DNA of 64,000 bases, taken from assembly GCA_963798485.1 (NCBI GenBank), contig CAWCTR010000008.1:64001-128000 (forward strand), given 5' to 3'. The stretch comes from an uncultured delta proteobacterium. Lineage in GTDB: Bacteria > Desulfobacterota > Desulfomonilia > UBA1062. How positions within the stretch are numbered: the stretch's first letter is position 1; every line of letters begins with the position of its first letter. Shown here in pieces: positions 12,948 to 56,051 of the stretch. The notes below the pieces were generated by a model, which was not told the origin of the DNA, searched no databases, and was given only the letters and a program-made list of their open reading frames with translations. The translations under genes and the position numbers were made by a program.

Positions 12948-15900
12948 TTATAATTGAATAAGCTCTTTTGCCAGCTGCAGGGTCTTCCGGCTCAAAGGGC
13001 AGCCGAGATCGGCAACAATACGATTTTTGCACCGTTCATAGGTCTTGCGCACCATGGGGTTGTTTCCTGAAAGGGCATATAGGCGCATGAGATGAAGGTA
13101 GATATTTTCTGCATAGGCATCCACTGCAAGGTGCTTAATGCAGTAATCAATGGCCTTTGAATATTCTTTTTTTGAAAAAAAGAAGTCAATGATGCACTCA
13201 AGGACCGAGAGATACAACTCCTTGATGCGGTCACGTTCCTCCATACACCATGGCTCGTAGAGATCCTCGGTAAAAAGGTCGCCCTGATAGAGCTGCTCGG
13301 CCTCAAAGAGATGATCAATAGCCCTTGCAGGATCATGTGCAGTCTTAGCCTTGCGGCAAGCCTCTACAAATGACTCCAGGTCCACCGCGCCTTCTTTCCC
13401 GAGATCAAGCAGGTAGGTATCTCCATCGCTTTTCAGATAGGCTGAAGGGAGGCCACGTTTGAGGCCAGGTTCGAGTATCCTTCGCAGTGTCGTGAGTGCC
13501 ACATGGAAGCGGGCCGAGGTCTTTTCAGGATTGCCCTCCGGCCACAAATGCTCCATGAAGATCTCTTTACTTACAAAGCCTTTGCTGCGATAATGGATGA
13601 ACAGCTTGAAGAGCATCTTTGCCTTGCTGCTCGTCCACTTCTCGGGCTTTATCTCTTCCTGGCCTCTAAATACCTGGAACCTCCCCAGACAATGGACCCT
13701 CAATCCCGGCCGGGATGCCTCGGGAAGGGCCTTTAAGATGTCAGATATGGCCTGTGCCGATTCCCGGTCCACCTGTCTCTGGAAACCAATCAAACTCACA
13801 CGGGCACTGTCGCCTGCAATCATGAAGATCTTCTGGATATAGCCCTTCATAATGCCTTTCGAAAAGAGCATTACCAGGAGTGGCATCATCCATTCCCATT
13901 CACGGGCGACCCATCCCTCGTATCCATTGTCCTGTGCTATCCGGAGACATCTTTGAAGCCAAGCAAGTGCCTCTTCCCTCCGGCCCTTAAGCCAATAAAA
14001 AAGGGCATATATCCTGAAGATGAGACAATCAAAATAGGTCGAATAAGAGTTCTCGGCATGCACCTCCTGAAGAAGCCTCTCAGCCTCATCCATCCTGCTT
14101 TTCAATATAAAAACAGTAGCAAGTATGCATTTGGCCGGTACGGTTATATATGGCAGACTGATACCTCTGAGGGCTTCCAGGCATGCATCTGCCATTTGCT
14201 CTGCAAGGTCGACTTGCCTGGAATAGATATAGATTGTCCCGAGGGTGAGGTAGGCGCAACCTTCACCAAAATATGATCCCAGCTTTTGAAAATGCTTGAG
14301 ACTGTCTTCTGCATAGAGGATGGCTTCTTCAAACTTTCCAAGACCCGAAGCATTCATTCCCGCGAAGCACAGGATCCATCCGTATGAAAAATCCAGAAAA
14401 CCCTTTTCTTTTGACAGGGCCAGACCTTTGCAGGCCTCTTCAAGGCCAATCGCAAATGAGCCGAGAAAAAAATGCGCTATGGAGGTGAGTTGATAACAGA
14501 TGGTCAGAATACGTTGACTTTGGTATTTATAAAGTTTTTTCTTGGCAGCTTCCGCCAGATCGAGGGCCTTGAACATATCTCCGGAATTAACGTGCCGGAA
14601 GCCGTGATAGAGCATGAGATTGGCATGAGACACTTCCCTTAAAACAGGTTCTTCGATACCAGGCATGAACATGAGGGCCTTTTCATAATACCTGTCCGAT
14701 TCTTCGAGCTTACCGTATTGAGACGTTATGAACACCAGATGGATAAGCGCCTCCACCCGTGAAGAAAGGCTTAAGGAGGGACTCTTTAGCAATTCTTCAA
14801 AGATCTTCTCAGCCGAGGCGAAATCGCCTCTCAAGTAGAGACCTATTGCCATGGTATTCAAACAACTGTCTATACCGTGCTGATCCTGTTTCTCTTTGAA
14901 GAGAACCAGCGCCTTGAAGAAGCAGTTCCTCGCCTCCATGAACCTACCCGAGAAGATGTGGGTAAACCCACGCTGATATTCGAGCCATGGGTGGGGATGG
15001 AAAAAAGGCTCAGGGATCTTTTCCAGAAATGCATTCATGAGCTCAAGCCTGCCCGACCCGATCAGGGCCATGCTCATCCTTTCCAGAATAGGACAGGCTA
15101 GCTCGAATGCGCCGGCATTGAGATAGTGCCGGGCAGCTTCTTCATCATCACCGCTCTCTTCCAGGATCTGAGCCGCTTGAAGGTGCAGGCGGTCCTTTTC
15201 CTCACTGCCCATTTCACGGCTGAGTGCGGTCTGTAGATATTCCTGGAAGAGATGGTGATAGCAATATTCCTGCCCTTCTTCATCCAGGACAAAGGTGAAG
15301 AGGTGGCTCTTCTGGAGTCTTCTCAGGATCTTCGCCGCATTCGAAATATTAAGGAGCCGGTTGCAGAACAACGCGTTCAGCCTGGAGAGGATGGAAGTCT
15401 TGAGAAGGAAACTTTTCAACTCCGTATGGAGCAGGGCATACACGTTTTCCGCCAGGTAATCGGATATGAGCCTTCCCGAGCCCTTGAGCCTATGTATTTC
15501 CTGTTCGATATCCATGGTATTTTTTTGTCTAATGGAATGGAAAAAGAGGATCAGGGCGCTGACCCAGCCGGCTGTCTTTGCGTAAAGCACCTCAAGGGAG
15601 TCTTCCGTCAAGTCGATCCGGAAGAGCTGCTGGAAAAACTCGCCGGATCTCCTCGGAGGTGAAGATGAGGTCATCCTGGGAGATGTCGAGGACCTCGCGC
15701 ATGGTCCTCAGACGGGAGAGCTGCAGCGGATACCTCGGCGCGGCTGATGATGATAAGATGCGCCCGCGGGCAAAGGTTCTCCGCCAGAAGCTGAACCGTA
15801 TCACGGATCAGGGAGGTGTCCTGCACATGGTGATAATCATCCAGCACGATCATTAAATCTTTCTTCGAGTTCCGAACCGAGCTCATGGATAAAGAGGGCG

Positions 15901-16241
15901 ACCACCCCTTTATACTCCAGGCTTAAGGTTTCGCCTTCCTCCAATCGTTTTGCCGTTTCCTTCCCGAAGTCAGGATAAATCCTTCGGATGCCTGCGACAA
16001 GATGGGAAAGGAAGGTGGCAAAGTCACGGTCAAGGTCGTCCAGCCGATACCACGCCGTGTCATACCCCTGTACGGCCTGGGCGATCAGGGTGGTCTTGCC
16101 GTAACCTGCACCGGCTGTAACAACAGCAACCCTCTTTTCAGGAATCTCCAGTGTGAGCGGCCTGAGCTTGTTCCGGATGATAGTATCCAAAGTGCGCGGA
16201 ACCATCAGCTTCGAGAATAATATCGGAAATTCTTTTGCCAT
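12948..16241 (-). pseudogene. MalT-like STAND ATPase-TPR-BTAD transcriptional activator split by three frameshifts (possibly sequence errors)
   Basis: Walker A AGAGYGKTT (ORF 15837-16298), Walker B IVLDDYH (ORF 15671-15886), PLQLSRLR (ORF 15592-15804), then TPR region and C-terminal wHTH/BTAD (CLGRFQV, LYQGDL) in ORF 12948-15674. Confidence 0.8.
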
Positions 16242-16331
16242 GATAGCAGTATATCGATTCGGGCAAATTAATTCACCATTAATTGTACTGTGATACAATG
16301 ATATGCATCAAACATTGAGGAGGTTTCTGTT

Positions 16332-16694
16332 ATGAGAAAGTTTGTTGCCATGTGTTTGCTTTGTTGTTTTGTCGGCTGCGGATCATTGGCCTATGCCGCG
16401 GACAGTGAATGCGACTGCAACTGCAAGACCGGAGGGTTGGGCATCAAGATCGGCAAATTCGTCTGTGGTTTCGGGTTTAAAAAGTTCAATTCGAAACTGG
16501 GATGTGATAAAAACATCGGTATTGGTCTCGGATTGGGTAGCGAGCTTCACCGGATTCAATTGGGTTTCGGGTTTGATGAGGGGGTATTCGGTTTCGGCAT
16601 CGGGTTAAAAGGCCCGGAAGAGACCACCAGTATGGGTTTCAGTCTGGGATACAACTATGGCGACTGCAGGATGGTCTGGCCCATAGAAGAATAA
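16332..16694 (+). CDS. small secreted Gly/Cys-rich beta-strand protein of unknown function
   Basis: GAGGAGG RBS, signal peptide ending AYA, alternating GxGxG hydrophobic strands. Confidence 0.7.
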   Translation: MRKFVAMCLLCCFVGCGSLAYAADSECDCNCKTGGLGIKIGKFVCGFGFKKFNSKLGCDKNIGIGLGLGSELHRIQLGFGFDEGVFGFGIGLKGPEETTSMGFSLGYNYGDCRMVWPIEE

Positions 16695-16755
16695 TTATTC
16701 CATTCTCCTTTGATTTGTTTGATATTGGAGTGGGGAGATTTGAAAGGGGGGTCAT

Positions 16756-17652
16756 ATGATGATTTTGCGTCTTTCACGGCATTTTGTACTGTTCCTTTTT
16801 GTTTCGGCAAGCTTTCTCACCGGCTGCGCATCCACCATGGCCAAAATGACGGTGGACGGCATGAAGCCCCTCATGGAGGACATGCACACTGCAACGAACA
16901 GGAACCCCGATGTGGACCTGGTACGTACCGCCATGCCGGCGATGCTCGTGCAGATGGACGGGTTCATCAGGGTCTCTCCGGAAAACAGATACCTCCTGTA
17001 CAGTGCGGCTGAAGCAAACATGGGCTATGCATTCCTGTTCGTGGAAGACACGGACAAGGAACGGGCCAAGGCACAGTATCTGAAAGCCAGGGATTATGCC
17101 CTGCGAAACCTGGAGCTGAATCAGACATTCAAACATGCCCTGGAACAGGACGATGTCCAGGTTTTCACCAAGGCCCTGAATACTATCCATAAACGGGATA
17201 TCGCGGCCCTGTATTTTGCAACGAATTCCTGGCTGCAATGGATCAACCTCTCCCTCGGCGACCACCCGGAAGTTTTGAAAGATCTGCCCAAGGTGGAAGC
17301 CATGATGGACCGAGTGCTCGTTCTGGACGATACCTTTTATCATGGCGGCATCCATGCGCTTTTCGGCGTCTATTATGTTGCCCGGCCCGAGATGTTCGGA
17401 GGGCAGCCCGAGGAGTCACAAAAACATTTCAAGGAAGCATTCGATATATCGGAATCAAAGTATCTCATCTGGCATTTTCTGTATGCAAAATACTATGCGG
17501 TGCAGACCAAGGACAGGGAGCTCTTTGTATCCACGTTGAACAAGATCATGACCGCGCCGGATGATCTCCTGCCGGAAGAAGCCTTTGCGAATGCGGCAGT
17601 CAAACAGAAAGCCAGGGAGCTACTGCTCCATGTCGATGATTACTTTAAATGA
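16756..17652 (+). CDS. tatT: TatT-family (TRAP T-component) TPR lipoprotein
   Basis: Lipobox FLTGC; DLVRTAMPAMLVQMDG, YAFLFVED, LDDTFYHGG, PEMFGG, YAKYYAV, NAAVKQKA resemble the TatT family as I recall it. Confidence 0.78.
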   Translation: MMILRLSRHFVLFLFVSASFLTGCASTMAKMTVDGMKPLMEDMHTATNRNPDVDLVRTAMPAMLVQMDGFIRVSPENRYLLYSAAEANMGYAFLFVEDTDKERAKAQYLKARDYALRNLELNQTFKHALEQDDVQVFTKALNTIHKRDIAALYFATNSWLQWINLSLGDHPEVLKDLPKVEAMMDRVLVLDDTFYHGGIHALFGVYYVARPEMFGGQPEESQKHFKEAFDISESKYLIWHFLYAKYYAVQTKDRELFVSTLNKIMTAPDDLLPEEAFANAAVKQKARELLLHVDDYFK

Positions 17653-18614
17653 ACATGAGACAGTACATCATCAGAAGAATCCTCTATTCCCTGTTGATCC
17701 TGTTTCTTGTCTCCATTCTCATTTTCATCCTGGGGAGGGTATTGCCCGGAGATCCGGTGCGCGCCGCAATCCTTTCCTCAAGAATCGATGCCGTCAACAA
17801 CGAGATCATCCAGGAGCTCCGGATCCAGTTCGGGTTGGATAAGCCCCTTCCCGTACAATACTTCATCTGGATCAAAAGCTTCATCCGGGGTGACTGGGGC
17901 GTATCCATCGCCAGCGGAGAGCAGGTGTTCCCCATGTTCATGACCAGGCTGCCCATCACCCTGGAGCTCTTTGCAGGCTCTGTTTTCTGGGCCTCTCTCA
18001 TCGGGTTTCCGTTCGGGATCATCTCTGCGCTCAGACGCAATTCGTGGCTCGACGTATCCGTAACCACCAGCGCCATCATCGGTGTTTCCATCCCGGTATT
18101 CTGGGAGGGGATTATCATGATCTACCTCTTTGCAGTGATCACCCATATCTTCCCTCCATCAGGCTATGTACCCTTTTCAGAGAACGCATGGGGCAACCTC
18201 CTTTCCGTGGCCATGCCCACCTTTATCATGGGAACCCAGGGCGCGGGACTTCTGAGCAGATTCGTGCGGTCGAGCCTGCTGGAGGTTCTGGGCCAGGACT
18301 ACATCAGGACTGCATATGCCAAAGGCCTGCGGGAAAAGGCCGTGCTCCTCAGACACGCCATGAAGCCCGCCATGATACCCGTGGTCACGGTCATAGGGCT
18401 GACCTGGGGCTATGTGGTGGCAGGTTCCTTCATCGTCGAGTATATGTTCGCCATCCCCGGTCTTGGCCGCATGGGGGTGAATGCGATCTTTGCCAAAGAT
18501 TTCCCCGTGATCCAGGCCACCCTGATCATGGTCGCCGCCAACATCCTGCTGGTGAATCTTCTTGTGGACCTCTTATACGGGCTCATCGACCCGCGGGTGA
18601 GGGTGCAGCAATGA
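17649..18614 (+). CDS. dppB: peptide/nickel ABC permease
   Basis: PGDP, GLDKPLPVQY, DYIRTAYAKGL EAA motif. Confidence 0.92.
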   Translation: MNMRQYIIRRILYSLLILFLVSILIFILGRVLPGDPVRAAILSSRIDAVNNEIIQELRIQFGLDKPLPVQYFIWIKSFIRGDWGVSIASGEQVFPMFMTRLPITLELFAGSVFWASLIGFPFGIISALRRNSWLDVSVTTSAIIGVSIPVFWEGIIMIYLFAVITHIFPPSGYVPFSENAWGNLLSVAMPTFIMGTQGAGLLSRFVRSSLLEVLGQDYIRTAYAKGLREKAVLLRHAMKPAMIPVVTVIGLTWGYVVAGSFIVEYMFAIPGLGRMGVNAIFAKDFPVIQATLIMVAANILLVNLLVDLLYGLIDPRVRVQQ

Positions 18615-19507
18615 ACAGCAATTATGAACAGAGTAACGGCCTTCTTCCCGGCCGAACCCATGGGCGGGCGGTCATACACACCCTTGCACATCACCGGATC
18701 GCATCCACAGGGATCATCATCTTTCTCTGCATCGCAGCCATGGCGATCTTCGCCCCTTTCCTTGTACCGTACAATCCGAACCAGCAGGATCTTTATCATG
18801 TCCTGGAAGGTCCTTCCCGGCTGCACCTGCTCGGCACCGACGACGTGGGCCGCGATCTGCTGTCCCGGGTCATCTATGGGTCCCGTGCCACGCTGCTCAT
18901 GGGAGGGCTTTCGACCTTGTTTTCAGCCGTCATAGGCGTGCTGCTGGGCTTGGTGGCCGGATACAAAGGCGGCATCATGGATATGATCATCATGCGCACC
19001 ACCGACACCTTCATGTGCATGCCTTCACTCGTATTGCTGCTCGCCATAGTGGCCGCTTTGGGGCCGGGCATTCAAAGCGTGATCATATCCATCACAGTTC
19101 TCTCGTGGACCGGGTTCGCGCGCATCGTCCGGGGCCAGGTGATGCAGGTGCGGGAGCTTCCTTATATCGAGGCGTCTCAGGCGCTGGGCGCTTCGGGTTT
19201 AAGGATCATGTTCAAACACCTCCTGCCCAATGTCATGGCCCCGATAATCGTCACCGCCTCTATTGCCCTTGGTGGAAACATCATGCTGGAAAGCGCGGTA
19301 TCATTCCTTGGACTCGGCGTGCAGCCTCCCACGCCGAGCTGGGGGAACGAGCTGAGAATAGGTTATTCTTATCTGGAGATCGTGCCTCTGTTTTCCTTTG
19401 CACCGGGATTGATGATAACGCTTTCCGTCCTTGCCTTCAACTTCATGGGCGACGGCCTGAGGGACGCCCTCGACCCGCGCCTGCGAGGTAATAACAGAAC
19501 AATATAA
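18611..19507 (+). CDS. dppC: peptide/nickel ABC permease
   Basis: HLLGTDDVGRDLLSRVIYG and PYIEASQALGAS; ATG 18611 overlaps dppB stop. Confidence 0.92.
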   Translation: MNSNYEQSNGLLPGRTHGRAVIHTLAHHRIASTGIIIFLCIAAMAIFAPFLVPYNPNQQDLYHVLEGPSRLHLLGTDDVGRDLLSRVIYGSRATLLMGGLSTLFSAVIGVLLGLVAGYKGGIMDMIIMRTTDTFMCMPSLVLLLAIVAALGPGIQSVIISITVLSWTGFARIVRGQVMQVRELPYIEASQALGASGLRIMFKHLLPNVMAPIIVTASIALGGNIMLESAVSFLGLGVQPPTPSWGNELRIGYSYLEIVPLFSFAPGLMITLSVLAFNFMGDGLRDALDPRLRGNNRTI

Positions 19508-19515
19508 TAAACAAT

Positions 19516-20478
19516 ATGCTGCTGAAGGTTAACAACCTGACCACCCATTTTTATTCCGACGACGGCATCATCAAGGCCGTGGATGATATCTCATACGACC
19601 TTAAGGAAGGAGAGACGCTTGCCATTGTCGGAGAAAGCGGCTGCGGCAAGACCGTCAGCGCCCTTTCCCTTATGCGGCTCATCCCCGATCCTCCTGGGAG
19701 AATCGTGAATGGCGAAGTCATATTTGAAGGACGGGATCTTCTGAAAATGAGCGATGAGGAGATCTGCGACATCAGGGGCAACCGGATCGCCATGATCTTC
19801 CAGGAACCCATGACATCCCTCAATCCGGTGCTCTCTGTCGGCCTTCAGGTCATGGAACCCCTGATGCTCCACAAGGCCATGAGCAGAAAATCGGCGCTGA
19901 TTACATGCATCGATCTTCTCAAGAAGGTGCAGATCCCTGACGCCGAGACCATGACGAACGCATACCCGCATCAGCTCAGCGGCGGTATGAGGCAGCGGGT
20001 CATGATCTCCATGGGTCTTGCCTGCAACCCCAGGCTCATCATCGCAGACGAGCCCACCACCGCCCTTGATGTGACCATCCAGGCAGAGCTCCTGGAGCTC
20101 ATGAAGAATCTTACCCGGGACCGGGGCACAGCCCTGATCATCATCACCCACAACCTTGGTATTGTGGCACGGTATGCAGACAGGGTCATGGTCATGTATG
20201 CCGGTAAAATCATCGAGAAGGCTGTGACAAGGGACCTCTACCGCACCCCGCGGCATCCCTATACCATCGGGCTTCTTGAGTCGGTCCCGAGGCTCGATCA
20301 GGATATCAAACAGAAGCTCATCTCCATTGAAGGCCGGCCGCCGGACCTGGCCTGCCTGCCTTCCGGCTGTTCCTTCCATCCGCGGTGCAGGTATGCCCTC
20401 GACAGATGCGCTCAGGAAGCACCGATACTCAGAGAAACAGACGACGGTCATGAAGTTGCGTGCTGGATAGGGGTTTGA
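19516..20478 (+). CDS. dppD: peptide ABC ATPase
   Basis: GESGCGKT, LSGGMRQR, IIADEPTTALD, C-terminal Cys-rich oligo_HPY domain. Confidence 0.95.
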   Translation: MLLKVNNLTTHFYSDDGIIKAVDDISYDLKEGETLAIVGESGCGKTVSALSLMRLIPDPPGRIVNGEVIFEGRDLLKMSDEEICDIRGNRIAMIFQEPMTSLNPVLSVGLQVMEPLMLHKAMSRKSALITCIDLLKKVQIPDAETMTNAYPHQLSGGMRQRVMISMGLACNPRLIIADEPTTALDVTIQAELLELMKNLTRDRGTALIIITHNLGIVARYADRVMVMYAGKIIEKAVTRDLYRTPRHPYTIGLLESVPRLDQDIKQKLISIEGRPPDLACLPSGCSFHPRCRYALDRCAQEAPILRETDDGHEVACWIGV

Positions 20479-20479
20479 C

Positions 20480-21463
20480 ATGAACGATACGCTTATCCAT
20501 GTAAACGGGCTTTCAAAGCACTTCCCCATCTATCACGGCGCGATCTTCAAGAAGAAAATAGGCGATCTGAAGGCCCTGGACGGGGTCAGCTTCGATATCT
20601 CAAAAGGGGAAACTCTCGGGCTCGTGGGAGAAAGCGGGTGCGGCAAAACGACAACCGGCCGGACCGTCCTCCAGCTCGAGCGACCCACATCCGGGGAGGT
20701 CCTCTTTCAGGGCAACGATATAACCAGGCTTAAGGAATACGAGCGCAGGAAGCTTAGGAAGCATATGCAGATCATCTACCAGGATCCCTTCGGGTCTCTG
20801 GACCCCAGGATGACGGTGGGCGATATTGTAGGCGAAGCGCTCCTGATCCATAATCTAACCCAAGGGAAAGGCGAATACGCCGAGAAGGTCCGTCACCTGC
20901 TGGAGATCGTGGGCTTGAACCCCGCCATGGCCGTGAGATATCCCCACGAGTTCAGCGGGGGGCAGCGGCAGCGCATCGGGATAGCACGGGCTCTGGCGGC
21001 AAGCCCGAGCTTCATCGTGTGCGATGAACCGGTCTCGGCCCTGGATGTATCGATACAGGCGCAGATCATCAACCTGCTGGAAGACCTTAAGGAAAAGCTC
21101 AACCTGACCTACTTGTTCATCGCCCATGACCTGTCGGTGGTCAGGCATATCAGCGACAGGATAGCGGTCATGTATCTGGGCGGGATCGTCGAGATCGCAA
21201 GCAGGGAGGACTTGTATCATAACCCGGGGCACCCCTACACAAAAGCGCTGCTTGCCGCTGTGCCCATACCCGACCCTGAGAAGGAGTACGGCCGGGAACA
21301 CTGCATGATCAAAGGAGAGGTCCCGAGCCTGTTCAATACCCCTCGGGGCTGCAAATTTCATCCCCGCTGCCCTCTCGCGCAGAAGACCTGCACGGAATCC
21401 AAGCCCGTGCTGAAGAGAATAAACAACAAAGATCATCTGGTGGCCTGCCACCTGGAAATTTGA
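20480..21463 (+). CDS. dppF: peptide ABC ATPase
   Basis: GESGCGKT, FSGGQRQR, DEPVSALD, HPYT motif. Confidence 0.95.
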   Translation: MNDTLIHVNGLSKHFPIYHGAIFKKKIGDLKALDGVSFDISKGETLGLVGESGCGKTTTGRTVLQLERPTSGEVLFQGNDITRLKEYERRKLRKHMQIIYQDPFGSLDPRMTVGDIVGEALLIHNLTQGKGEYAEKVRHLLEIVGLNPAMAVRYPHEFSGGQRQRIGIARALAASPSFIVCDEPVSALDVSIQAQIINLLEDLKEKLNLTYLFIAHDLSVVRHISDRIAVMYLGGIVEIASREDLYHNPGHPYTKALLAAVPIPDPEKEYGREHCMIKGEVPSLFNTPRGCKFHPRCPLAQKTCTESKPVLKRINNKDHLVACHLEI

Positions 21464-21482
21464 TGTGAATGAGGAGGTTATC

Positions 21483-23456
21483 ATGATGAAACATTCTCAA
21501 AGAGAAAGAAATCTCACCACGAAGAACACAAAGGGAAAAGAATCACTTTGGTTTGGGAAACAAGTTCCTCCCTTTTGTAAAGGGAGGACAGGAGGGATTT
21601 TACGCCCATGCACTAAAATCTCCCCTGTCCCCTCCTTAAAAAGGAGGGGAACCTTATACCCTGCTTTTCTTCGTGCCCTTCGTGGTAAAAATATTATTGT
21701 GGCAGGCCTAGCCCTCGTTCTCTGTCTGACATTTTTAATCGATCATCCTGCTCAAGCACAGGACAATACTAAGGAAAAGTCGGGGTGGATGGAATGGGGG
21801 ACCAAATACTGTCCCGACAAGCCGGTCAGGGGCGGGTATGTCCGCGCTGCAGCGCCTCTGTACATCGGGTCCATGAATCCCAACCATTTCCCGGTCATGG
21901 ACTGGATAACCATGAGCACCATGTACGAGAAACTCATCAACCTGGACGGCAGCTACAAACCGACAATACCCTGGTTGGCCGAGTCCTGGGAGTATCTTGA
22001 CGATGTCACCGTGGTCATGAAGCTGAGAAAGGGCGTCATGTTCCATGACGGCTCGCCCTTCAATGCCAAGAGCCTGAAGTATCAGATGGACTGGATAATG
22101 GATAAGGACAACGCAGCATGGACCAGGGCCTGGATCGAGCCGCTGAAATCCGTAGACGTGATGGATGAGTACACGGTGAAATGGCATTTCAAAAGGTCAT
22201 GGGGTGCTTTTCTCGGTACCATGGCAAGTGTACCCGGATTTGCTGTTTCAGCAAAAGCGCTGGAACGTGATGCCGCCATGACAAAGACAAAAAAGATCGA
22301 ACGTGAACTCGTAACAGCAAGACGGAAGGCTGCCAATGAAAATGATGCCTGGAAGGCTGCAGAGGCAAAAAAGAGAGTGGCTGACCTGGAAGCACAGCTG
22401 AAAAGTTTCTCCGCGATTGCTCAAAATGCAAAGCCCCTCGACACCAACCCGGTGGGCACCGGACCGTATATGCTGGAGGCAGCAAGCACGGATAACTATG
22501 TAACGCTGAAAAGAAACCCGAACTGGTGGTTCGGCAGGAGCATCGGCATGCCGGACATGCCGTACTTCGACGGGATGAAGATATCCGTCATTCCCGACCC
22601 GTCCGTAAGGCTTGCAAATCTCAAGGCCGGCACAATCGACTTCATCGTGCTGAACGCCAACCAGTACAAACTGGTAAAAGACGATCCGAACTTTGATGTA
22701 GCCACCTTTCCCGTGAACTGGCTGGTATTTCTGACCTTCAACAATGCAAAGGGGCCTTGCGCGGATATCCGTGTCCGCCAGGCAATCTCCCACGCAATCG
22801 ATAGGAAAGCGCTGGTCATGGGAACCCAGTTCGGCCTCGGCAGAGTCTCCAGCTGCATATATCCGAACGATCACTGGGCCCACAATCCTGACTTGAAGCC
22901 CGTCAGCTACGATCCTGAATTATCCAGGAAGCTCCTTGCTCAAGCCGGTTATGGCGGTGGCCTCACCATAAAAGGGTTCACCCTCAATTCACCCGAGGCC
23001 CAGGCCTTCGCAAAGGCAGTGATGGCCATGCTCGAAAAGGTCGACATCACGTGGAAGCCGGTATTTCTGGGCGTTACCGGCATGATGGAGCCGTTTAAGA
23101 AAATGGATTTCGATATGATCGGGAACCTGTATCCCTGGATACAGGAACCGGATCATGTAGCCACCCTTCTCTATGACCCGGACAGCCCGTTCAACAATGG
23201 CCGGAGCCGTAATACAAAGGCCATTGCACTGATAAAGGCAGGGAGAGAAACAACCGACGTTGCAAAAAGGGCAAAGATCTACCACCAGCTGGAAAAGGTG
23301 CTCTACGACAACTACGAGGACGCCTGGCTCTGGTGGCCCAATGCAGTCCTGGCTTCCAGCAGGAATGTACGGGGATTCAACCTTGACATGAATATTAAAT
23401 ACGGGGAAGGGTACTATTTCTCACATCCGCAATGGTTCAGAGATGGGCATCCTTGA
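21483..23456 (+). CDS. family-5 ABC solute-binding protein with N-terminal repeat insertion and internal helical insertion
   Basis: GAGGAGG RBS before ATG 21483; PWLAESWE, LRKGVMFHDG, NPVGTGPY, VRQAISHAIDR. Confidence 0.88.
   Translation: MMKHSQRERNLTTKNTKGKESLWFGKQVPPFCKGRTGGILRPCTKISPVPSLKRRGTLYPAFLRALRGKNIIVAGLALVLCLTFLIDHPAQAQDNTKEKSGWMEWGTKYCPDKPVRGGYVRAAAPLYIGSMNPNHFPVMDWITMSTMYEKLINLDGSYKPTIPWLAESWEYLDDVTVVMKLRKGVMFHDGSPFNAKSLKYQMDWIMDKDNAAWTRAWIEPLKSVDVMDEYTVKWHFKRSWGAFLGTMASVPGFAVSAKALERDAAMTKTKKIERELVTARRKAANENDAWKAAEAKKRVADLEAQLKSFSAIAQNAKPLDTNPVGTGPYMLEAASTDNYVTLKRNPNWWFGRSIGMPDMPYFDGMKISVIPDPSVRLANLKAGTIDFIVLNANQYKLVKDDPNFDVATFPVNWLVFLTFNNAKGPCADIRVRQAISHAIDRKALVMGTQFGLGRVSSCIYPNDHWAHNPDLKPVSYDPELSRKLLAQAGYGGGLTIKGFTLNSPEAQAFAKAVMAMLEKVDITWKPVFLGVTGMMEPFKKMDFDMIGNLYPWIQEPDHVATLLYDPDSPFNNGRSRNTKAIALIKAGRETTDVAKRAKIYHQLEKVLYDNYEDAWLWWPNAVLASSRNVRGFNLDMNIKYGEGYYFSHPQWFRDGHP
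21516..21686. repeat. nested REP/MITE-like palindromic elements inside coding sequence
   Basis: Outer IR ACCACGAAGAACACAAAG...CTTCGTGCCCTTCGTGGT (15/18 match); inner IR 21564-21652 whose arms are each hairpins. Confidence 0.75.
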
Positions 23457-23490
23457 GTATAAAGTCCGACACAATACGAGGTATGATAAA

Positions 23491-24790
23491 ATGGAAACAT
23501 TTCAGGAGCGCATTGCGTATTTGGATAACATAAGAAATATTCTAGTATATAATGTCGTTCTTGTTCATATCATCTTAATGTTCGCCTATCCTTTGAGTTT
23601 CTGGTGGTCGGTTATCGATAAAAATGGGTCATCCAGTGTCTATAAAAATCATCTCGTTATAATGGATATTTACTTGATGCCTCATCTTATGTTCATTGCC
23701 GCACTTTTTATATTCCCTTCCCTGAATGCTACATCTACAATAATTTATATTAAAAAAAGATTTTTTAGAATCTTTGTACCGATAATTGTATTTACTTTTT
23801 GCGCAGGAGATATTTTTTATCAAATCCTATTTAAACGATTAGACAACTCCAATCCAACCTATATCCTTACATTCCTTGATTACTGGCGTGACTTTATAAA
23901 TTTTTAAAGTAATTACTTTTATCGGGGAAGGTAAAATGTTGAACCAGATTAGTTTTAATATGTCTCATGCCTGGTTTTTATCATTTCTTTTTTTCATGAC
24001 ATTAGTAGCCGTCTTATTGACTATACCCTTCAAGAAAAAAGAAAAAGTGCAGAGTGAAGTTGAAAGCAGGAAAAAAATAATAATTAAAACAATTATCCTG
24101 GCCGTGATACTCGGCTTTTTCTATGCAGTGCTCGCAATATTGTTTTCTGTTAAGGGTATTCGTTTTGATTCATGGATACGGGTATTCGGATTGGTTCAGG
24201 TTCGGCTTAATCAATTCTTTATACTTCTACCCTTGTTTCTACTTGGTTTATTTATGTACAGGAAGGATTGGCTGACCAGAGGAGATATCGGGAGCTGGAA
24301 AATGTGGGGCATGATATCAGCAGTTTTGATTTTTGTTTATGTCTTGCTTTTCCATAACAGACTTTCCCCCACTTTGGACGAATTATATAAGATTGCTGAA
24401 CATAATATGATTTACTCGGATAAAATACCATTCCCGGTAATTACAGATTCTTTTAAACAGACCGGTTTGATTATTTATATTCTGACTGTGCCGATATGTA
24501 TATTTCTTTTAATGTTTTTTCTTTCTTTTACTAAGAAATATTTTAACAAACACAATAAAATAACGGAATTTTGTTCAAAGCATTCCATCAATGTATATCC
24601 TCATCCACTGATTGCTCTATCATTTTTTGTAATACTAAAACTGGTCTCGCTATTTATAGGCTTTGACTTTTATTATATAGCTCTTTTGACCGTGATTTTT
24701 ATTTCTTTTGCAGGCGCCATCTATGAATCTGTAAGGTTACTGGTATCTGGAAAAGCCAGCGGACAGAAATTTATAAGTTCGCAGTTATAA
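23491..24790 (+). pseudogene. acyltransferase-3 (OpgC/MdoC-like) membrane protein, frameshifted
   Basis: RIAYLDNIR, IKKRFFRIFVP, HAWFLSFLF; removing one T from the T5 run at 23901-23905 joins both ORFs; visibly AT-rich. Confidence 0.75.
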
Positions 24791-24985
24791 CATCATAGCA
24801 GATTTGATTACAAGTCAGTTTTATAATAGCTTTATTTTTAGTTCAGCAGATGTGAAGATGTATGTACCACATGACAAAGGGAATAAATAATAATATAGAT
24901 TAGCAACTAGGGGCGGTTTTATTGGTAGTGAATGACAATCAACTGAATCGCCCCCCTATCTGGTTAAGAAAGGAGAAGAAAACAG

Positions 24986-25270
24986 ATGTCAACATTCATT
25001 TTATTCGGAAGGTATTCACCCGAGGCATTAAAAGGGGTAAGTTCAGCTCGAACCAAGAAGGCATTGACCCTGGTTAAAAAATTCAATGGCAAGATCCTTT
25101 CCATGTATGCCCTGCTTGGAGAAAAGGACCTCATGTTCATTGCAGATTTTCCCGGAATTGAAGAGGTCATGCAGGCATCGGTTGCCTTGCACAAACTTAC
25201 AGGCATCTCATTTTCCACATCAGCTGCTGTTTCAGTCGATAAGTTCGACAAACTGATGGCAGAGATCTGA
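24986..25270 (+). CDS. GYD-domain protein
   Basis: 94 aa with MYALLGEKDLMFIADFP GYD-like pattern; AAGGAG RBS. Confidence 0.75.
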   Translation: MSTFILFGRYSPEALKGVSSARTKKALTLVKKFNGKILSMYALLGEKDLMFIADFPGIEEVMQASVALHKLTGISFSTSAAVSVDKFDKLMAEI

Positions 25271-26744: not shown

Positions 26745-27666
26745 CTATTCCAGGACAGCGCCGCGGGCGGCAGAGCCGACCATTTTAATATAGCGGCGCA
26801 TATACCCCGGCGGGATCTCACGCAGAACCGGTTTCCAGGCCGCCAGACGCCTCTTGATCTCCTCGTCGCTGAGGTTGACGGTGAGTGCGCGGGCCGGGAT
26901 ATCGATGGTGATCATGTCGCCGTCGCGGATGACGGCGATCGGTCCGCCGCAGTCCGCCTCCGGCGAGACGTGGCCGATGCACGGTCCGGCCGTGGCCCCG
27001 GAGAAACGCCCATCCGTAATGAGGGCCACGCGGGTAAAGCCCGCCAGGTCGAGGCCCATGGTCACGGCCAAGGTTTCGGGCATGCCGGGGCCGCCCTCGG
27101 GGAGCGGATGACAGAAGGCCCATGGGCCTTGTCCGGGATGACGCGCCTCGGCGTATCTTGACCACGGCCTGCTCCACGATCTCGCGCACCGTCAGGCCTG
27201 AGACCGTCATGGGACCCGGGTGCAGGTCGTCGGCGAGCATCTTCATGACGGCAGGTATGCCGCCGGCCACGAAGAGGTCGATGATCCCGTGCGGACCGTT
27301 GGGGGAGATCCCGCACAAGGTGGGGATAATGCGGTTGAAATCATTGATATCGGCGATGAGATCGCGCTGCGCCGGAACGAAGTGCATCCCCGGGTGGCCT
27401 TCGGTCATTCCGTCGCAGGGGGCGGGGACGTTGAACTCAAAAGGCAGTCCCCCGGCTGCGTGTACCCCTTCCTTGACCCGCTGGGCAATGGGCCCGAGGT
27501 GCATGTGACCGGGGTTGATCTCAGTCAGCGAGTTCGCGATGCCGATGATCGGTTTGGCGCGGCCCTCGTCCAGGTCGACGCCCGTGCCTTGAAAGATCGA
27601 CTTCCGTACGATGCTGATGGGAAAATCGCTATCGTCGAAGATAGGTGTACTCTGCGGTTTCTTCAT
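26745..27666 (-). pseudogene. ilvD: dihydroxy-acid dehydratase (IlvD/Edd family) relic with internal deletions
   Basis: PGHMHL and CDG N-terminal motifs, GGIPAVMK middle piece, C-terminal TDGRFSGAT...GHVSPEA in another frame; ~920 bp versus ~1.7 kb for an intact gene. Confidence 0.85.
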
Positions 27667-27971
27667 GTACCTCCTTCTATGTTCATGCCTGCGGTACAAG
27701 CTTACCATACTAGAAATAGCATGACGTTGGAAGACCTACCCCATTATCTCGCTCGTCATGACAAATCAATTTTTGATGATGCAATAGAACACTATGATGC
27801 CATCGGCCTGGCAGGTAACACGAACCCTGATCTTGCAGAGCCTTCCTGGATGCCGGCCTGGAACAGGGAGAAATACCCCGATAGTCACCCGTTGTCTGTC
27901 CAGGAGGCGCATGTTATATAACCGCCAGGTGAGGATATGTTTGTAGTTGTTCTTACAAAGGAGGTTCCTGA

Positions 27972-30630: not shown

Positions 30631-31485
30631 TCATACCGCACACTTGAAGGCCCTGCCGGGGATCAGGCCCATGGTGAGCGGACGAACGGGGAGCTTGTCC
30701 TTCTCAAGGCCCGATGCTACTTCATGCAACGGGCAGATCCGGTAACCGAGCGAGACGGCCAGGGTCAGCATCTCCTTGAATTGGCCCTGGTATACCAGGC
30801 CCTCCACCTCTGCATGAACGGGCAGTACCTGGGGCACCTGGATATCAGAGCGGTCTTTGATGGCTGCCATGACGCCGTCTACGCCCACTTCCTCAATGCA
30901 CGGCATATTCGAGGGGACCTCGATCATGGAGTTATCCTCAAAGACGAACGGGGCTTGGGCCCTGGTGCAGCTCAGATACGAGAGTTTATAGGTTTCAACG
31001 ACCTCGAGCGAGCGTTCATCAATCATCCAGCCGGGCGCGCCGAAGGCCTTCGGCTGTGTACCTGTAATCTGGACATAGGCCCCTACCATCTTGGCAAACC
31101 ATGCCTCTATGGAGTTTCTGCTCATGAGAAAGAGCCAGTCCTGCCAGAGGCGGTGGTCCCAGGCGTGGCAGGCTACCTCGTGTCCGGCCTTTATGAGGCC
31201 TTGGATTATGTCCGGAAAATCCATGCCGATCATGGGCGCTCTCAGCAGGGTGCCGTATAGGGCCGTCTTCCACCCGTAGAGGCCGGGTGCGTTGGTGCGG
31301 ATCATCTTTTTTAAAAACGAAGGCCGCAGGAGCTGCAGCACGGCCAGGCCCGACCTGTCCGGGCCGAAGCTGATGAAGAAGCTCGCTTTCAGACCGTACG
31401 CTGAGAGGATTCCGGCGATAGCCGGAACACCCTCCTTCATGCCGCGGAAGGTGTCAACGTCAACCTTGAGGGCCAGATCAGGCAT
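30631..31485 (-). CDS. arnD: undecaprenyl-P-Ara4FN deformylase
   Basis: LALKVDVDT, FGPDRSG, HAWDH, HAEVEG; arn context. Confidence 0.85.
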   Translation of the reverse strand: MPDLALKVDVDTFRGMKEGVPAIAGILSAYGLKASFFISFGPDRSGLAVLQLLRPSFLKKMIRTNAPGLYGWKTALYGTLLRAPMIGMDFPDIIQGLIKAGHEVACHAWDHRLWQDWLFLMSRNSIEAWFAKMVGAYVQITGTQPKAFGAPGWMIDERSLEVVETYKLSYLSCTRAQAPFVFEDNSMIEVPSNMPCIEEVGVDGVMAAIKDRSDIQVPQVLPVHAEVEGLVYQGQFKEMLTLAVSLGYRICPLHEVASGLEKDKLPVRPLTMGLIPGRAFKCAV

Positions 31486-32509
31486 TATCGGTAGCTATTT
31501 CTTCAAGGAAGCTGTCCAGTGTCCGCTTGAGGGCCTCATCAAGGCCCACCTTGGGCTCCCATCCGAGCCTTGTTTTGGCATTCTTTATTGAAGGGACCCT
31601 GGTCTGTATGTCCTGGTAGCCGACGCCGTAGAATTCACCTGACGGCTTTATGATGATTTCGGAAAAGGTCTTATCTTTCTTATGGTCCGGGTGCTGCTTG
31701 AACATCTCGAGAAGCTTATGGGCAAGATCCTTGATGGAAAGGTTATTGGCCGGGTTGCCTATGTTGAAGATCTGCTTGCTCGCTTGAGAGCCCTCATTGT
31801 GAAGGATCTTCATGAGTGCGCCGATGCCGTCGTCTATATAGGTGAAGGACCTGCTCTGCATGCCGCCATCCACCAAGGCGATCGGGGTCTTGAAGACCAG
31901 CGATGCTATGAACTGGGTCACCACCCGTGAGGAACCTTCCTTTGCCGTCTCCAGTGAATCCAGCCTCGGGCCGATCCAGTTGAAGGGCCTTATCAAGGTA
32001 AAGTCCAGCTCGTCCCTGCTGCCATAGGCCCAGATGACCCTGTCTAAAAGCTGTTTGGAACAGGAGTAGATCCAGCGCTGCATGGGGATGGGCCCCAGTA
32101 CGAGAGGGGAGCTGTATTCATCAAAGGCCTCATCAGCGCTCATGCCGTATACCTCTGAGGTTGAGGGGAAGATCACCCTCTTGTGGTATTTCACGCACGC
32201 TCGGATGATGCGCAGGTTTTCCTCGAAGTCCAGCTCGAACACGCTCAAGGGACGCTCCACATAGGTCTTGGGGGTGGCAATGGCCACCAGCGGCAGCACC
32301 ACGTCGCATTTCTTGATGTGATATTCGATCCATTCCTTGTTGATGGCGATGTCGCCCTCGATGAAGTGGAACCGCTCGTTGTCGATCACTGCTTTGAGCT
32401 TGTTATCTCCCAGGTCCATGCCGTAGACGTTCCAGTCCGTTTCTCTCATGATCCGCTCGCTTAAATGCGAGCCGATGAACCCGTTCACACCCAATATGAG
32501 TACTTTCAT
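31478..32509 (-). CDS. arnA: UDP-glucuronate oxidase/decarboxylase (stand-alone ArnA C-terminal domain)
   Basis: GVNGFIG, WIEYHIKKCDVVLPLVAIATP, RWIYSCSKQLLDRVI. Confidence 0.92.
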   Translation of the reverse strand: MKVLILGVNGFIGSHLSERIMRETDWNVYGMDLGDNKLKAVIDNERFHFIEGDIAINKEWIEYHIKKCDVVLPLVAIATPKTYVERPLSVFELDFEENLRIIRACVKYHKRVIFPSTSEVYGMSADEAFDEYSSPLVLGPIPMQRWIYSCSKQLLDRVIWAYGSRDELDFTLIRPFNWIGPRLDSLETAKEGSSRVVTQFIASLVFKTPIALVDGGMQSRSFTYIDDGIGALMKILHNEGSQASKQIFNIGNPANNLSIKDLAHKLLEMFKQHPDHKKDKTFSEIIIKPSGEFYGVGYQDIQTRVPSIKNAKTRLGWEPKVGLDEALKRTLDSFLEEIATDNA

Positions 32510-33420
32510 TGCACCAGTTCTCCTTCGTGGTCTTTGAAATATTTCTGCAGGGCTTCCTCCTTGAGTGTCCTGCCGTTCACCTCTATCTCAAGGGGCCTTA
32601 TACATCCGTAGCCGGTGCCGATCAAAACAGTATCTTCGTGAAAAATGATCTTGCCAGGCTCCTTTGTAGCCCCTGCCTCAGGCACGGCCCACCAGAAGGT
32701 GACCATTTCATCACCCACAAACCCAAAGGCGCCGGGGTAGGGCGTTGTAACTGCACGTATGAGGTTATAGATCTCCGAAGCGGGTTTGTCCCAGAATATC
32801 CGGCCGTCTTCCGGCTTCCTGCCCCCATAGTAAGAGCCTTTGGACAGGTCCATGTGCATCTTAGGGATATCTCCCATGATAATACGCGGCAGGATCTCGG
32901 TAAGCATGGCATCGGCGGCCTGTTCGAGTTTGTTAAAGAGGGTAAGCGCAGAATCGTCCGGGGTGATCTCCACCTTCTTCTGGCTTACGATAGCCCCGGC
33001 ATCGGGCTTTTCCACCATCTCGTGCAGCGTAACGCCCGTTTGCTGTTCGCCTTTGATGAGAACCCAGTTCACCGGGCACCGGCCACGGTAGGCGGGCAGA
33101 TATGAGCCGTGGAGGTTATAGGCGCCGAGCCTCGGGATGTTAAGGATCGCGGGTTTGAGCATGTGCCGGTAATAGAAGCTGAAGATGATGTCCGGTTTAG
33201 CCGACTTGATCCGTTCGATCCACCCGTACTGGTTTGGGTCTCTCGGATGGACGCAGTCAATAGCAAGCTCACGGCACAGGTCAGGTACCGAGCCGAACCA
33301 CACATTCTCGCCCGGGTCATCCTCGTGGGAAAAGACCAGGGGGATCTCAAAGCCTGCACGCCCAAGCCTCCTGATGCCGACGAGGCCCATGTTATGGTAG
33401 GCGAAAACCACGGCCCTCAA
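32506..33420 (-). CDS. arnA: UDP-L-Ara4N formyltransferase (stand-alone ArnA N-terminal domain)
   Basis: TTG start overlapping arnC stop; AVVFAYHNMG, FSFYYR, NLHGSYLPAYRGRCPVNW. Confidence 0.88.
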   Translation of the reverse strand: MRAVVFAYHNMGLVGIRRLGRAGFEIPLVFSHEDDPGENVWFGSVPDLCRELAIDCVHPRDPNQYGWIERIKSAKPDIIFSFYYRHMLKPAILNIPRLGAYNLHGSYLPAYRGRCPVNWVLIKGEQQTGVTLHEMVEKPDAGAIVSQKKVEITPDDSALTLFNKLEQAADAMLTEILPRIIMGDIPKMHMDLSKGSYYGGRKPEDGRIFWDKPASEIYNLIRAVTTPYPGAFGFVGDEMVTFWWAVPEAGATKEPGKIIFHEDTVLIGTGYGCIRPLEIEVNGRTLKEEALQKYFKDHEGELVQ

Positions 33421-34346
33421 TGGTATACCTTCCTTATGGTATACGGCGGGCGTTTCTTCACCTCGCGGTAGATCCTGCCCACATATTCGCCCATGACTCC
33501 GAAGGCCAGGAACTGCGCGCCCACAAAGAAGAACAACACGGCAAACAGGGTGAATATGCCTTGCGCCGCCCACTGGGCCCCAAAGGCGAGCCTGGCCACC
33601 GCAAGAAATGTGCCGAAGCCCATGCCGAGGAAGGCCAGGACAATGCCGGTATAGAGCATTGCCTTTAAAGGGAAGTCCGAGAAAGAGGTCACCAGGTCGA
33701 ATTGCAGAGAGATGAGCTTTGAGAGCGAATACTTGGACTCGCCTGCAAACCGTTCTTCGTGCCTCACCTCGATCTCGGCAATGTCCTTGGCGAAGCTGGT
33801 GGCGAGCGCAGGGATGAAGGTCGAATGCTCTTGGCTCGAAAGCATGTAGTCCACTACGTGCCTTTTGTATGCCCGGAGCATGCACCCCCAGTCGGAAAGG
33901 TGCACGCCGGTAATGCGGCGGGTAATGGCATTGACGATCCTGCTGGCCGTCTTCCTGAAAGACGAGTCCTGCCTCATCTTGCGTACCGTTCCCACCACCT
34001 CGTAGTTACCCGTCTCCATCACATCCACCAGGCGCGGTATCTCCTCGGGCGGGTTCTGGAGGTCGGCATCCAGGGTGACCACGATTTCGCCGGTGCTGTT
34101 CTCAAACCCGGCGAATACGGCCGCATGCTGGCCGTAGTTGCGGGAAAGCTCTACGATGATGACGCGATCTGATGCATGGCTTCTCAGGATATCCAGAGAT
34201 CTGTCCTTGCTGCCGTCATCAACGAGGATCACCTCATAATCCCTGTTCATTGCTTCCATGGCCGGCATGAGCCGTTCGAAGAGTTTTGGGAGCACCTGCT
34301 CTTCGTTGTATACCGGTATGACAACCGAGATCCTGGCCTGGTTCAT
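33417..34346 (-). CDS. arnC: undecaprenyl-phosphate Ara4FN transferase (GT2)
   Basis: VVIPVYNEE, VDDGS, RNYGQHAA, DADLQNPPEEIP, two C-terminal TMs. Confidence 0.9.
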   Translation of the reverse strand: MNQARISVVIPVYNEEQVLPKLFERLMPAMEAMNRDYEVILVDDGSKDRSLDILRSHASDRVIIVELSRNYGQHAAVFAGFENSTGEIVVTLDADLQNPPEEIPRLVDVMETGNYEVVGTVRKMRQDSSFRKTASRIVNAITRRITGVHLSDWGCMLRAYKRHVVDYMLSSQEHSTFIPALATSFAKDIAEIEVRHEERFAGESKYSLSKLISLQFDLVTSFSDFPLKAMLYTGIVLAFLGMGFGTFLAVARLAFGAQWAAQGIFTLFAVLFFFVGAQFLAFGVMGEYVGRIYREVKKRPPYTIRKVYH

Positions 34347-35464
34347 GTGAAGGTCTCCTTGAGCGCGGTTATTACCCGGTCAACCTGTGACTCGACCAGA
34401 GAAGGATACAGCGGAATGCTTAAGATCCGTTCCGCTGCCGCCTCGGTCTCAGGCAAGTCCGTCTTCCCGAAGAGTTTTTTGATATATGTCAAGGTGTGGC
34501 ATGCCGGAAAGTGAAGCCCGTAGCCGATATTACGCTCTGCAAGCTCGGCCATGAGTGTCTTCCTGTCAACGGATCGGGCCTTGATCACAAAGAGGTGCCA
34601 GGAATGGACATGGCTGTAGGCAAGCACGCCCGGCAGGTCGAGACCCTTGACCTGGGAGAGGCCGTCAATATAACGCAGTGCTATATGGGTCCGCCCGGCA
34701 TTGATCTCATTGATCTTATTCAACTGCACAATACCGAGCGCCGCCTGCAGGTCGGTCAGGTTGTACTTGAATCCCGGTTCCTCGATGTCATAGGTGGGGT
34801 CTGAGGCCTTGCCGTAGCGCTTCCAGGCATCGCGCTCTATGCCATGGAATTTCAGCAGTTTCAGCTTATCCATCAGTTCCTTCGAGCCACCAGTGACCAT
34901 GCCGCCCTCTGCGGTGGTGATGTTTTTGATGGGGTGGAATGAAAACACGGCAATGTTATGTGCCCCGATATGGGAACCCTTGTAAAAGGTGCCGACGGCA
35001 TGGGCCGCATCCTCGATGATAGGGATCTTTCCGCAGGCCGCAACAATGGCATCCATATCCGCAGGTGCGCCGGCGAAGTGGACGGGGATAACGGCCCTGG
35101 TCTTTTTGGTGATGGCCTTGGCGATATCGTCGGGCTTCACCAGCAGCGTGCCGTAGTCTATATCGACAAACACAGGCTTGGCGCCTGAGAGCACAATCTG
35201 GTTCACCGTGGAGGCAAAGGTCATGGAAGGCGTGATGACCTCGTCGCCCTTGCCGATACCCAATGCCTTGAGCAGCAGGTGCATGCCGGCAGTGCCCGAG
35301 CTCAGTGCCAGGGCATGGCTGGAGCCGGTGTACCGTGCAAAGTCCTCTTCAAACCGGGCGCATTTGGGTCCGGTGGTTATCCAGCCGGACTTTATGACCT
35401 CGGTGACTGCATCGACTTCTTCGGTACCGAAGTACGGTTTGCTCATAGGTATGAATTCATCCAT
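34343..35464 (-). CDS. arnB: UDP-4-keto-arabinose aminotransferase (DegT family)
   Basis: SGWITTGPK, IEDAAHA, FSFHPIKNITTAEGG. Confidence 0.9.
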   Translation of the reverse strand: MDEFIPMSKPYFGTEEVDAVTEVIKSGWITTGPKCARFEEDFARYTGSSHALALSSGTAGMHLLLKALGIGKGDEVITPSMTFASTVNQIVLSGAKPVFVDIDYGTLLVKPDDIAKAITKKTRAVIPVHFAGAPADMDAIVAACGKIPIIEDAAHAVGTFYKGSHIGAHNIAVFSFHPIKNITTAEGGMVTGGSKELMDKLKLLKFHGIERDAWKRYGKASDPTYDIEEPGFKYNLTDLQAALGIVQLNKINEINAGRTHIALRYIDGLSQVKGLDLPGVLAYSHVHSWHLFVIKARSVDRKTLMAELAERNIGYGLHFPACHTLTYIKKLFGKTDLPETEAAAERILSIPLYPSLVESQVDRVITALKETFT

Positions 35465-35466
35465 CG

Positions 35467-37119: not shown

Positions 37120-37265
37120 AGCGATATGATCACAATCGTCCCCATCATAAGAAGGATCTCTGGAAATAACAAGCCCATTTCAAGGGACCGAAGAACTCTC
37201 CGGACCTTGGGTTGGATGCCTTGCGGCTTTTCATAAGGGCTATATTATTATAAAGAGATGGAACC

Positions 37266-56029: not shown

Positions 56030-56051
56030 CATATTCTATTCTGAGGCAGAT

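Follow-up and report, generated by a model that had tools for sequence, protein, structure and literature searches.

The window analysed here is a stretch of 64,000 nucleotides (nt) from an uncultured delta proteobacterium (contig CAWCTR010000008.1, positions 64,001 to 128,000 of the forward strand). Between its positions 16332 and 23456, the list of open reading frames (ORFs) and Pfam searches identify seven co-oriented genes on the + strand, encoding a small secreted protein, a lipoprotein of the TatT family, the permeases and ATPases of a Dpp/Opp-type ATP-binding cassette (ABC) transporter, and a family-5 solute-binding protein (SBP5). TatT has so far counted as a fourth subunit, found in a small group of the tripartite ATP-independent periplasmic (TRAP) transporters. 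The features of the locus are the following:

16332-16694, + strand: small secreted Cys/Gly-rich protein, 120 amino acids (aa), about 97 aa when mature, with a signal peptide of the signal peptidase I (SPase-I) type
16756-17652, + strand: TatT-family lipoprotein, 298 aa, PF16811 (TRAP transporter T-component)
17649-18614, + strand: DppB/OppB-type permease, BPD_transp_1 and BPD_transp_1_N, all NCBIfam equivalogs below cut-off
18611-19507, + strand: DppC/OppC-type permease, OppC_N and BPD_transp_1, NCBIfam scores under cut-offs
19516-20478, + strand: DppD/OppD-type ATPase with C-terminal oligo_HPY (Pfam); Walker A, signature, Walker B and H-loop present
20480-21463, + strand: DppF/OppF-type ATPase with C-terminal oligo_HPY (Pfam); ATPase motifs intact
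21483-23456, + strand: family-5 solute-binding protein, SBP_bac_5 E=3.1e-71
21490-21700, + strand: window-specific structured insertion of about 200 nt in the 5' end of the SBP5 frame
16266-16299, + strand: candidate promoter, TTCACC-16-TACAAT plus TG, with the inverted repeat AATTAAT-N5-ATTAATT lying across it (weak evidence)

An earlier interpretation made without database searches (the sequence-only reading) had proposed the same gene content, order and orientation, and all of its elements were recovered on the + strand. As it had claimed, tatT and dppB overlap, the stop of the one and the start of the other sharing the ATGA at 17649-17652, read directly from the sequence; a second in-frame ATG for dppB lies at 17655. 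The dppC gene starts at ATG 18611, not at 18044 as the raw ORF has it, and shares its first 4 nt with the end of dppB; the remaining intergenic gaps, from the small-protein gene to dppF, measure 61, 8 and 1 nt. No Pfam match to DctP, DctQ or DctM was found across the 57 window ORFs scanned, in line with the earlier statement that the window holds no DctP/TatP or DctQM gene.

Components of the operon

The TatT lipoprotein matches PF16811 with E=5.6e-70 and 236.1 bits, against a cut-off of 26.5, its residues 50-297 covering positions 2-263 of the 263 in the profile. Sequence matches were also obtained to both TatTs of solved structure, the palmitate-bound Enhygromyxa protein (8g52, E=1e-16) and Tp0956 (3u64, E=5e-11), so that the family assignment of the sequence-only reading holds. 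The lipobox reads LTGC, and Cys24, the lipidated residue, is invariant in 41/41 aligned relatives.

SBP5 is of the soluble type: cleavage is placed at AQA|QD and no lipobox is present, its relatives likewise carrying an ordinary SPase-I signal peptide without lipobox. Its best match in the Protein Data Bank (PDB) is 5u4o (E=3e-38), aligned in two stretches around an insert, followed by HbpA, DppA and NikA. The insert is rich in K, E and A and about 40-50 aa long; all five best PDB alignments break around it, and a segment of 60-82 aa between two conserved motifs, which contains it, is found in 59/59 aligned members of the subfamily. It looks helical, and these five relatives lack it. SBP5 also scores under the cut-offs of all NCBIfam equivalogs of the Dpp, Opp, Nik and Gsi types: NikA is best, with E=4e-44 and 150.9 against a cut-off of 393, and DppA reaches 92.4 against 1005. 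As judged from its sequence, SBP5 is a divergent family-5 member, belonging to a subfamily with a distinctive insert. Asp408, the residue by which DppA anchors the peptide, falls in a query gap of the HMMER alignment to 1dpp, a part of the alignment not reliable enough for a comparison.

The 5' end of the SBP5 gene is unusual. A conserved Shine-Dalgarno sequence and ATG (21470-21488) are split from the signal-peptide core by the in-frame insertion of about 200 nt, whose RNA is predicted to fold at -77.7 kcal/mol (z=-6.2) into three stable hairpins. The insertion is absent from four related loci (L001, L002, L003 and L014) and matches nothing in Rfam; it occurs only once in the window, and not at all in the loci collected below. 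The start of SBP5 is ambiguous, ATG 21483/21486 and GTG 21699 being available, and the annotation of the source (P0121, 555 aa) would begin the protein behind its signal peptide, probably at ATG 21789.

The small secreted protein shows four invariant cysteines (C29, C31, C58 and C112) in an alignment of 15 copies, and 22% glycine. Its hydrophobicity alternates with a period of about 2, as in amphipathic beta strands, to a degree reached by 4 of 1000 shuffles. No Pfam match was found even at E<=10, nor any usable match in PHROGs, NCBIfam or a PDB profile search. A profile of the protein returned 15 matches at E<=1e-3 among 1.84 billion representatives, which makes it a very small family; two of the 15, with 962 and 885 aa, align in numerous short pieces, and one of these two, P0251, is a tandem repeat without relation to the family. 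In a protein atlas, its homologue P0241 gave scores of 0.78 or below, which is the chance level.

Upstream of the operon, promoter-like matches are not more frequent than in shuffled sequences (15 versus 10.8 +/- 3.9), and the inverted repeat at the candidate promoter is not kept in relatives. Rfam, run over 15600-25000, gave a single sub-threshold miRNA match and nothing else, and comparison of the window with E. coli genomes gave no match at the DNA level.

Recurrence and descent of the tatT-dppBCDF arrangement

In order to survey the neighbourhoods of related tatT genes, 41 TatT relatives were aligned and the patterns derived from the alignment were scanned in species-representative genomes. 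The 100 pattern matches include 53 confirmed TatT loci, all from metagenome-assembled genomes (MAGs), nearly all of which are titled as Desulfobacterota-type taxa. Loci were typed by tblastn with the window proteins, by ORF clustering and by Pfam on the cluster representatives, and fall into five contexts:

20/53 loci, in 20 different MAGs: TatT followed by DppB-C-D-F (ABC-type)
13/53 loci: DctP/DctQ/DctM, the classical TRAP arrangement
8/53 loci (L017, L026, L029, L030, L032, L035, L038, L045): Tat-signal aldo-keto reductase, DUF6599, DUF362 and an Fe-S (polyferredoxin-like) protein after TatT
6/53 loci (L015, L016, L019, L020, L021, L023): MarR with beta-lactamase-fold or M20 genes
6/53 loci: cut off or other

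The gene order of the window is not unique to its genome, as it recurs in 20 MAGs and with a TatT clade of its own. The arrangement exceeds chance, because the same gene order follows TatT in 20/53 related loci, a proportion that describes the TatT subfamily of the window, from which the scan patterns were made, and not TatT at large. The same SBP5 closes the operon in 17/17 ABC-type loci with sufficient contig; the contigs of L010, L025 and L037 end earlier. The small-protein gene precedes tatT in 14/20 ABC-type loci, and also in L008; the protein is best described as a clade-specific accessory, which may act on the entry side or at the outer membrane. The spacing between tatT and dppB is -4 nt in five cases (the window, L006, L007, L012 and L048) and a gap of 3-68 nt in 12 further loci, so that in 17/21 cases the two genes overlap or lie within 68 nt; the gap exceeds 100 nt in L010, L014 and L027, and L033 is unscorable.

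The phylogeny of TatT was inferred from 50 rows, leaving out L014 (frameshift), L047 (internal stop), and L050 and L053 (partial). One clade contains the window, 16 ABC-type loci and L008, with a support of 98 SH-aLRT in the quick tree and of 100/98 in the careful tree. L049 is the sister of this clade (87/89), and the ABC-type L025 and L027 stand on long branches outside it. Holding all 21 ABC-linked rows together costs only 2.27 log-likelihood units, and the test does not reject a single origin (p-AU 0.43). When the tree is rooted on the distant L051, its basal branches are TRAP-linked; the ABC-linked clade lies nested among TRAP-linked TatTs, and thus descends from TRAP-associated ones. The simplest reading of the tree is that, within this lineage, an ABC system acquired a TatT of the TRAP type.

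A TatT adjoining ABC genes by historical accident could still serve a TRAP transporter encoded elsewhere in the genome. The window covers 64 kb, and related MAGs carry TRAP-linked TatT paralogues, as this explanation would have it. In these MAGs, however, each paralogue has its own company: JTS-AC21 holds an ABC-linked TatT (L027) and a TRAP-linked one (L036), each adjoining its own partner, and the Desulfosudis FI88_44_71 holds three paralogues with different partner sets (L011, ABC; L015; L029). The presence of such paralogues beside different partners argues against an ABC-adjacent TatT working for a TRAP system, the TRAP-linked protein being a different one, next to its own TRAP genes. Since the ABC-linked TatTs also form a separate, well supported clade, and tatT is translationally coupled to dppB in five loci, we regard this explanation as very improbable.

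The remaining contexts deserve a short description. In the loci with aldo-keto reductase and DUF genes, an acyl-CoA thioesterase is often found upstream of TatT, and TatT may there serve a periplasmic redox system. In the MarR context, MarR lies upstream of TatT in four loci; downstream there is a gene for a beta-lactamase-fold protein or an M24 peptidase, and genes for M20 peptidases or for flavoproteins of the fumarate-reductase type are close by. The TatTs of this context make up a single clade (98/94). Genomes with ABC-linked TatTs also hold paralogues in these two contexts. In five loci (L018, L022, L036, L039 and L052), DctQ/DctM are found after TatT or in its neighbourhood, with no recognisable DctP between, and in three of them (L036, L039 and L052) DctM is followed by a conserved protein, about 320 aa long, without Pfam family.

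Probable ligand class and proposed function

Two TatTs, Tp0956 and the Enhygromyxa protein, have only recently been shown to bind long-chain fatty acids, according to the accessible part of the published account (PMC11713862). The same part states that TatT occurs in about 2% of TRAP systems, and that the partners encoded beside about 25% of TatTs are not related to TRAP PQM, BstC being an example of such a TatT. In the accessible part of an earlier account, the pore of the TatT trimer is aligned with the cleft of the P-protein, and the TRAP transporters associated with a TPR (tetratricopeptide repeat) protein (TPATs) are found in hydrocarbon degraders (PMC5812351).

The genes surrounding the module point in a similar direction. 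ADC-family and acyl-CoA dehydrogenase genes lie upstream of it in L008, L009, L037 and L041, and downstream in L011, L013 and L027; the same pair also follows TatT-DctP in the TRAP-type L047. Because the same catabolic neighbours accompany TatT with either type of transporter, the data suggest that TatT sets the class of ligand and that the energy-coupling module is interchangeable. A regulator of the GntR/FadR_C type (FadR-like) is divergent in L003 and L014, where an inverted repeat of 15-16 nt, common to both loci (L003, 4187-4223; L014, 9329-9363), lies between the FadR-like and the small-protein genes. This candidate operator presumably resembles those of FadR. TetR-type regulators are found in L004, L033 and L041. 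A hydrophobic ligand thus appears probable from the published TatT ligands and from the neighbouring acyl-CoA genes.

Genes of envelope lipid metabolism were also observed next to ABC-type operons: the outer-membrane lipid A deacylases LpxR in L002 (1400-2473) and PagL in L005 (17864-18355), and the apolipoprotein N-acyltransferase Lnt in L027 (4163-5806). Either a link to the turnover of envelope acyl chains or a coincidence is possible.

Taken together, the conserved seven-gene operon probably encodes an ATP-driven, binding-protein-dependent importer of the PepT type, to which TatT has been recruited as an extra periplasmic component, with a likely ligand of a hydrophobic, fatty-acyl type; this is the reading we favour, with some reserve. 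According to it, TatT, anchored to a membrane by Cys24, would capture the ligand and hand it to the soluble SBP5, which would then dock on DppBC, import being driven by the hydrolysis of ATP by DppDF. By the E. coli sorting rule, an alanine at position +2 directs lipoproteins to the outer membrane; the alanine found at this position of TatT would place it there. TatT would then be a hand-off module independent of the transporter, rather than a TRAP-specific subunit.

The same genes could also encode an ordinary importer of peptides, nickel or metallophores, with TatT and the small protein co-transcribed for a separate job, such as lipid homeostasis at the outer membrane, and not feeding the binding protein. 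The ABC parts are indeed typical of the PepT family, the closest relatives among solved or curated proteins being DppA, HbpA, NikA and GsiB, and the LpxR, PagL and Lnt genes mentioned above would suit a separate role of TatT in the envelope. Against it, the stop-start overlap and the gene order kept in 20 genomes speak for one functional unit, SBP5 misses all equivalog cut-offs, and the characterised role of TatT, in the accessible published work, is the hand-off of a ligand to a binding protein. The divergence of TatT, moreover, tracks those of SBP5 and DppB: over 12 complete operons, pairwise TatT distances correlate with r=0.93 for SBP5, 0.90 for DppB and 0.51 for DppD, figures which are suggestive only, as the pairs are not independent and the operon is inherited as a unit. 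An ordinary importer is, on this evidence, the less likely explanation, to be kept in mind.

Several observations weigh against the recruitment of TatT to the importer. Since the best NCBIfam match of SBP5 is NikA and its best PDB matches include DppA, HbpA and NikA, a ligand of the kinds usual for family 5 (peptide, nickel, opine or haem) is compatible with them. The SBP5 subfamily is itself large, with more than 120 members at >=53% identity, and one of these (P0199) shares its contig with L052, where the TatT detected is linked to TRAP genes. Only three residues (D133, G198 and E227) are specific to the ABC-linked TatT clade, too few to define an interface, and the search for TatT fusion proteins found none longer than 522 aa, which is weak evidence. 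As already said, the scan patterns restrict the recurrence of the linkage to one TatT subfamily. In L008 (2236-3621), the small protein and a TatT of the ABC clade are preceded by ADC and acyl-CoA dehydrogenase genes, and no ABC genes follow within 1.6 kb downstream; the MAG of L008 also has a complete Ank-TatT-DppBCDF-SBP5 locus (L048). Finally, several window genes are frame-shifted and, given also the odd 5' end of SBP5, the window copy may or may not be functional.

The direction of transport has also to be considered, as the system might export or recycle envelope lipid instead of taking up a nutrient. This has been proposed for BstABC, whose BstC, a relative of TatT, has a proposed role in sterol export according to the accessible part of the published account (PMC11713862); envelope-lipid genes lie near some loci, and in the window an Acyl_transf_3 gene overlaps the SBP5 stop. 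The catabolic neighbours (acyl-CoA dehydrogenase, ADC-family and FadR-like genes) point instead to uptake for degradation. ABC systems with BPD_transp_1 permeases and a family-5 binding protein are importers, and export appears very unlikely.

A wider form of the uptake model can be envisaged, in which the operon would power with ATP the passage of lipids or fatty acids across the whole envelope: TatT, in the outer membrane, would receive the lipid, with the small protein as its partner on the entry side, and would load SBP5, whose insert would serve as the docking arm for TatT. We consider this a tentative proposal, and doubtful in its entirety. If correct, a Dpp/Opp-type ABC transporter would act as a lipid importer, and TatT as a general module for lipid hand-off that does not depend on the type of transporter.

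If the favoured reading, a PepT-type importer with a recruited TatT, is correct, the T component would be a portable module for ligand delivery, which can be plugged into transporters of different energy coupling. A PepT-family ABC system would then have a hydrophobic substrate; as members of this family usually carry the label of peptide or nickel transporters, many of these annotations in sulfate reducers and syntrophs could therefore be wrong. TatT, SBP5 and the small protein also make up a defined set with which the passage of hydrophobic nutrients through the periplasm could be probed in anaerobes that degrade fatty acids and hydrocarbons.

Other genes of the window and comparison with known systems

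The sequence-only reading had placed the operon, with caution, under the control of a divergent MalT-like activator. The corresponding gene of the STAND/MalT type (12948-16298, - strand) has NTPase, MalT-type TPR and BTAD domains, and is split into ORFs of 153 and 908 aa. Its frame changes at least 3 times from 15674 to 15840, in the NTPase part, which may be due to real decay (a pseudogene) or to indels of the assembly. By tblastn, the gene was not found beside the operon in the 20 related loci, save for a C-terminal fragment of 90 aa in L002, and relatives have FadR-like or TetR neighbours. A role as activator of the operon was rejected, given the frame changes and the lack of conservation. 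On the other side, the Acyl_transf_3 gene (23443-24790), which overlaps the SBP5 stop by 14 nt, has a frameshift near 23907-23936 and lies in a region of low GC content (about 43-47%); it was not found after SBP5 in related loci.

Farther in the window, an ORF of 296 aa (26818-27708, - strand) matches only the N-terminal domain of dihydroxy-acid/6-phosphogluconate dehydratase, and may be another truncated or frame-shifted gene. The region 30631-38870 encodes a deacetylase, an epimerase/dehydratase, a formyltransferase, a GT2 protein, a DegT-type aminotransferase and two PMT/ArnT-like transferases, a cluster which we take to resemble the Arn pathway for the modification of lipid A with aminoarabinose. 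At 54542-57634, the low GC content (about 45%) and a phage-type integrase adjoining an AbiEi/AbiEii type IV toxin-antitoxin pair suggest a small mobile island.

The sequence-only reading had called the system undescribed. The literature search found no accessible account of a Dpp-type ABC partner for TatT; the neighbourhood analyses of Zhai et al. 2023 (ChemBioChem) and Brautigam et al. 2012 lay outside the search, and may already list ABC partners. The claim has to be toned down, as a TatT without TRAP partners is not new in itself: the accessible part of the published account reports this for about 25% of TatTs (PMC11713862).

Among the known systems, BstABC of Methylococcus capsulatus, as far as its accessible description goes, resembles the window in having a protein of the TatT superfamily (BstC) outside a TRAP context, alongside a periplasmic protein with the fold of an ABC-type binding protein (BstB, PF12974). 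It differs in having an RND membrane protein, a binding protein of the phosphonate-binding family and a proposed role in export, whereas the window has a complete ABC importer and a family-5 binding protein; Pfam finds neither an RND transporter nor a PF12974 protein in the operon.

With the Dpp, Opp, Nik and Gsi importers, the operon shares two BPD_transp_1 permeases, two ATPases with oligo_HPY and one SBP_bac_5 protein, that is, the full set of a PepT-type ABC importer. Unlike them, it ends with the gene of the binding protein and has tatT coupled in translation to the gene of its first permease, its SBP5 carries the insert of about 40-50 aa, and none of its components reaches an NCBIfam equivalog cut-off, which leaves it outside the subfamilies defined by substrate (DppA, OppA, NikA, GsiB and others).

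The closest parallel is the TPAT of Treponema pallidum (TatT Tp0956, with TatP/TatQM), where a PF16811 lipoprotein is likewise encoded in one operon with a binding-protein-dependent importer, and where the presumed role, in the accessible accounts, is the same passage of a hydrophobic ligand to a periplasmic binding protein. A TPAT is defined by the linkage of tatT with DctP-type and DctQ/DctM genes. Because this linkage fails, DppBCDF following tatT instead, both here and in 20 related loci, the system of the window is, on its gene content, not a TPAT. The partner of TatT is an ATP-driven ABC transporter of the PepT type with a family-5 binding protein, in place of a DctP/DctQM TRAP transporter; the binding protein is soluble, whereas that of TPAT is a lipoprotein; and a small secreted protein is encoded before tatT in most members of the ABC type.

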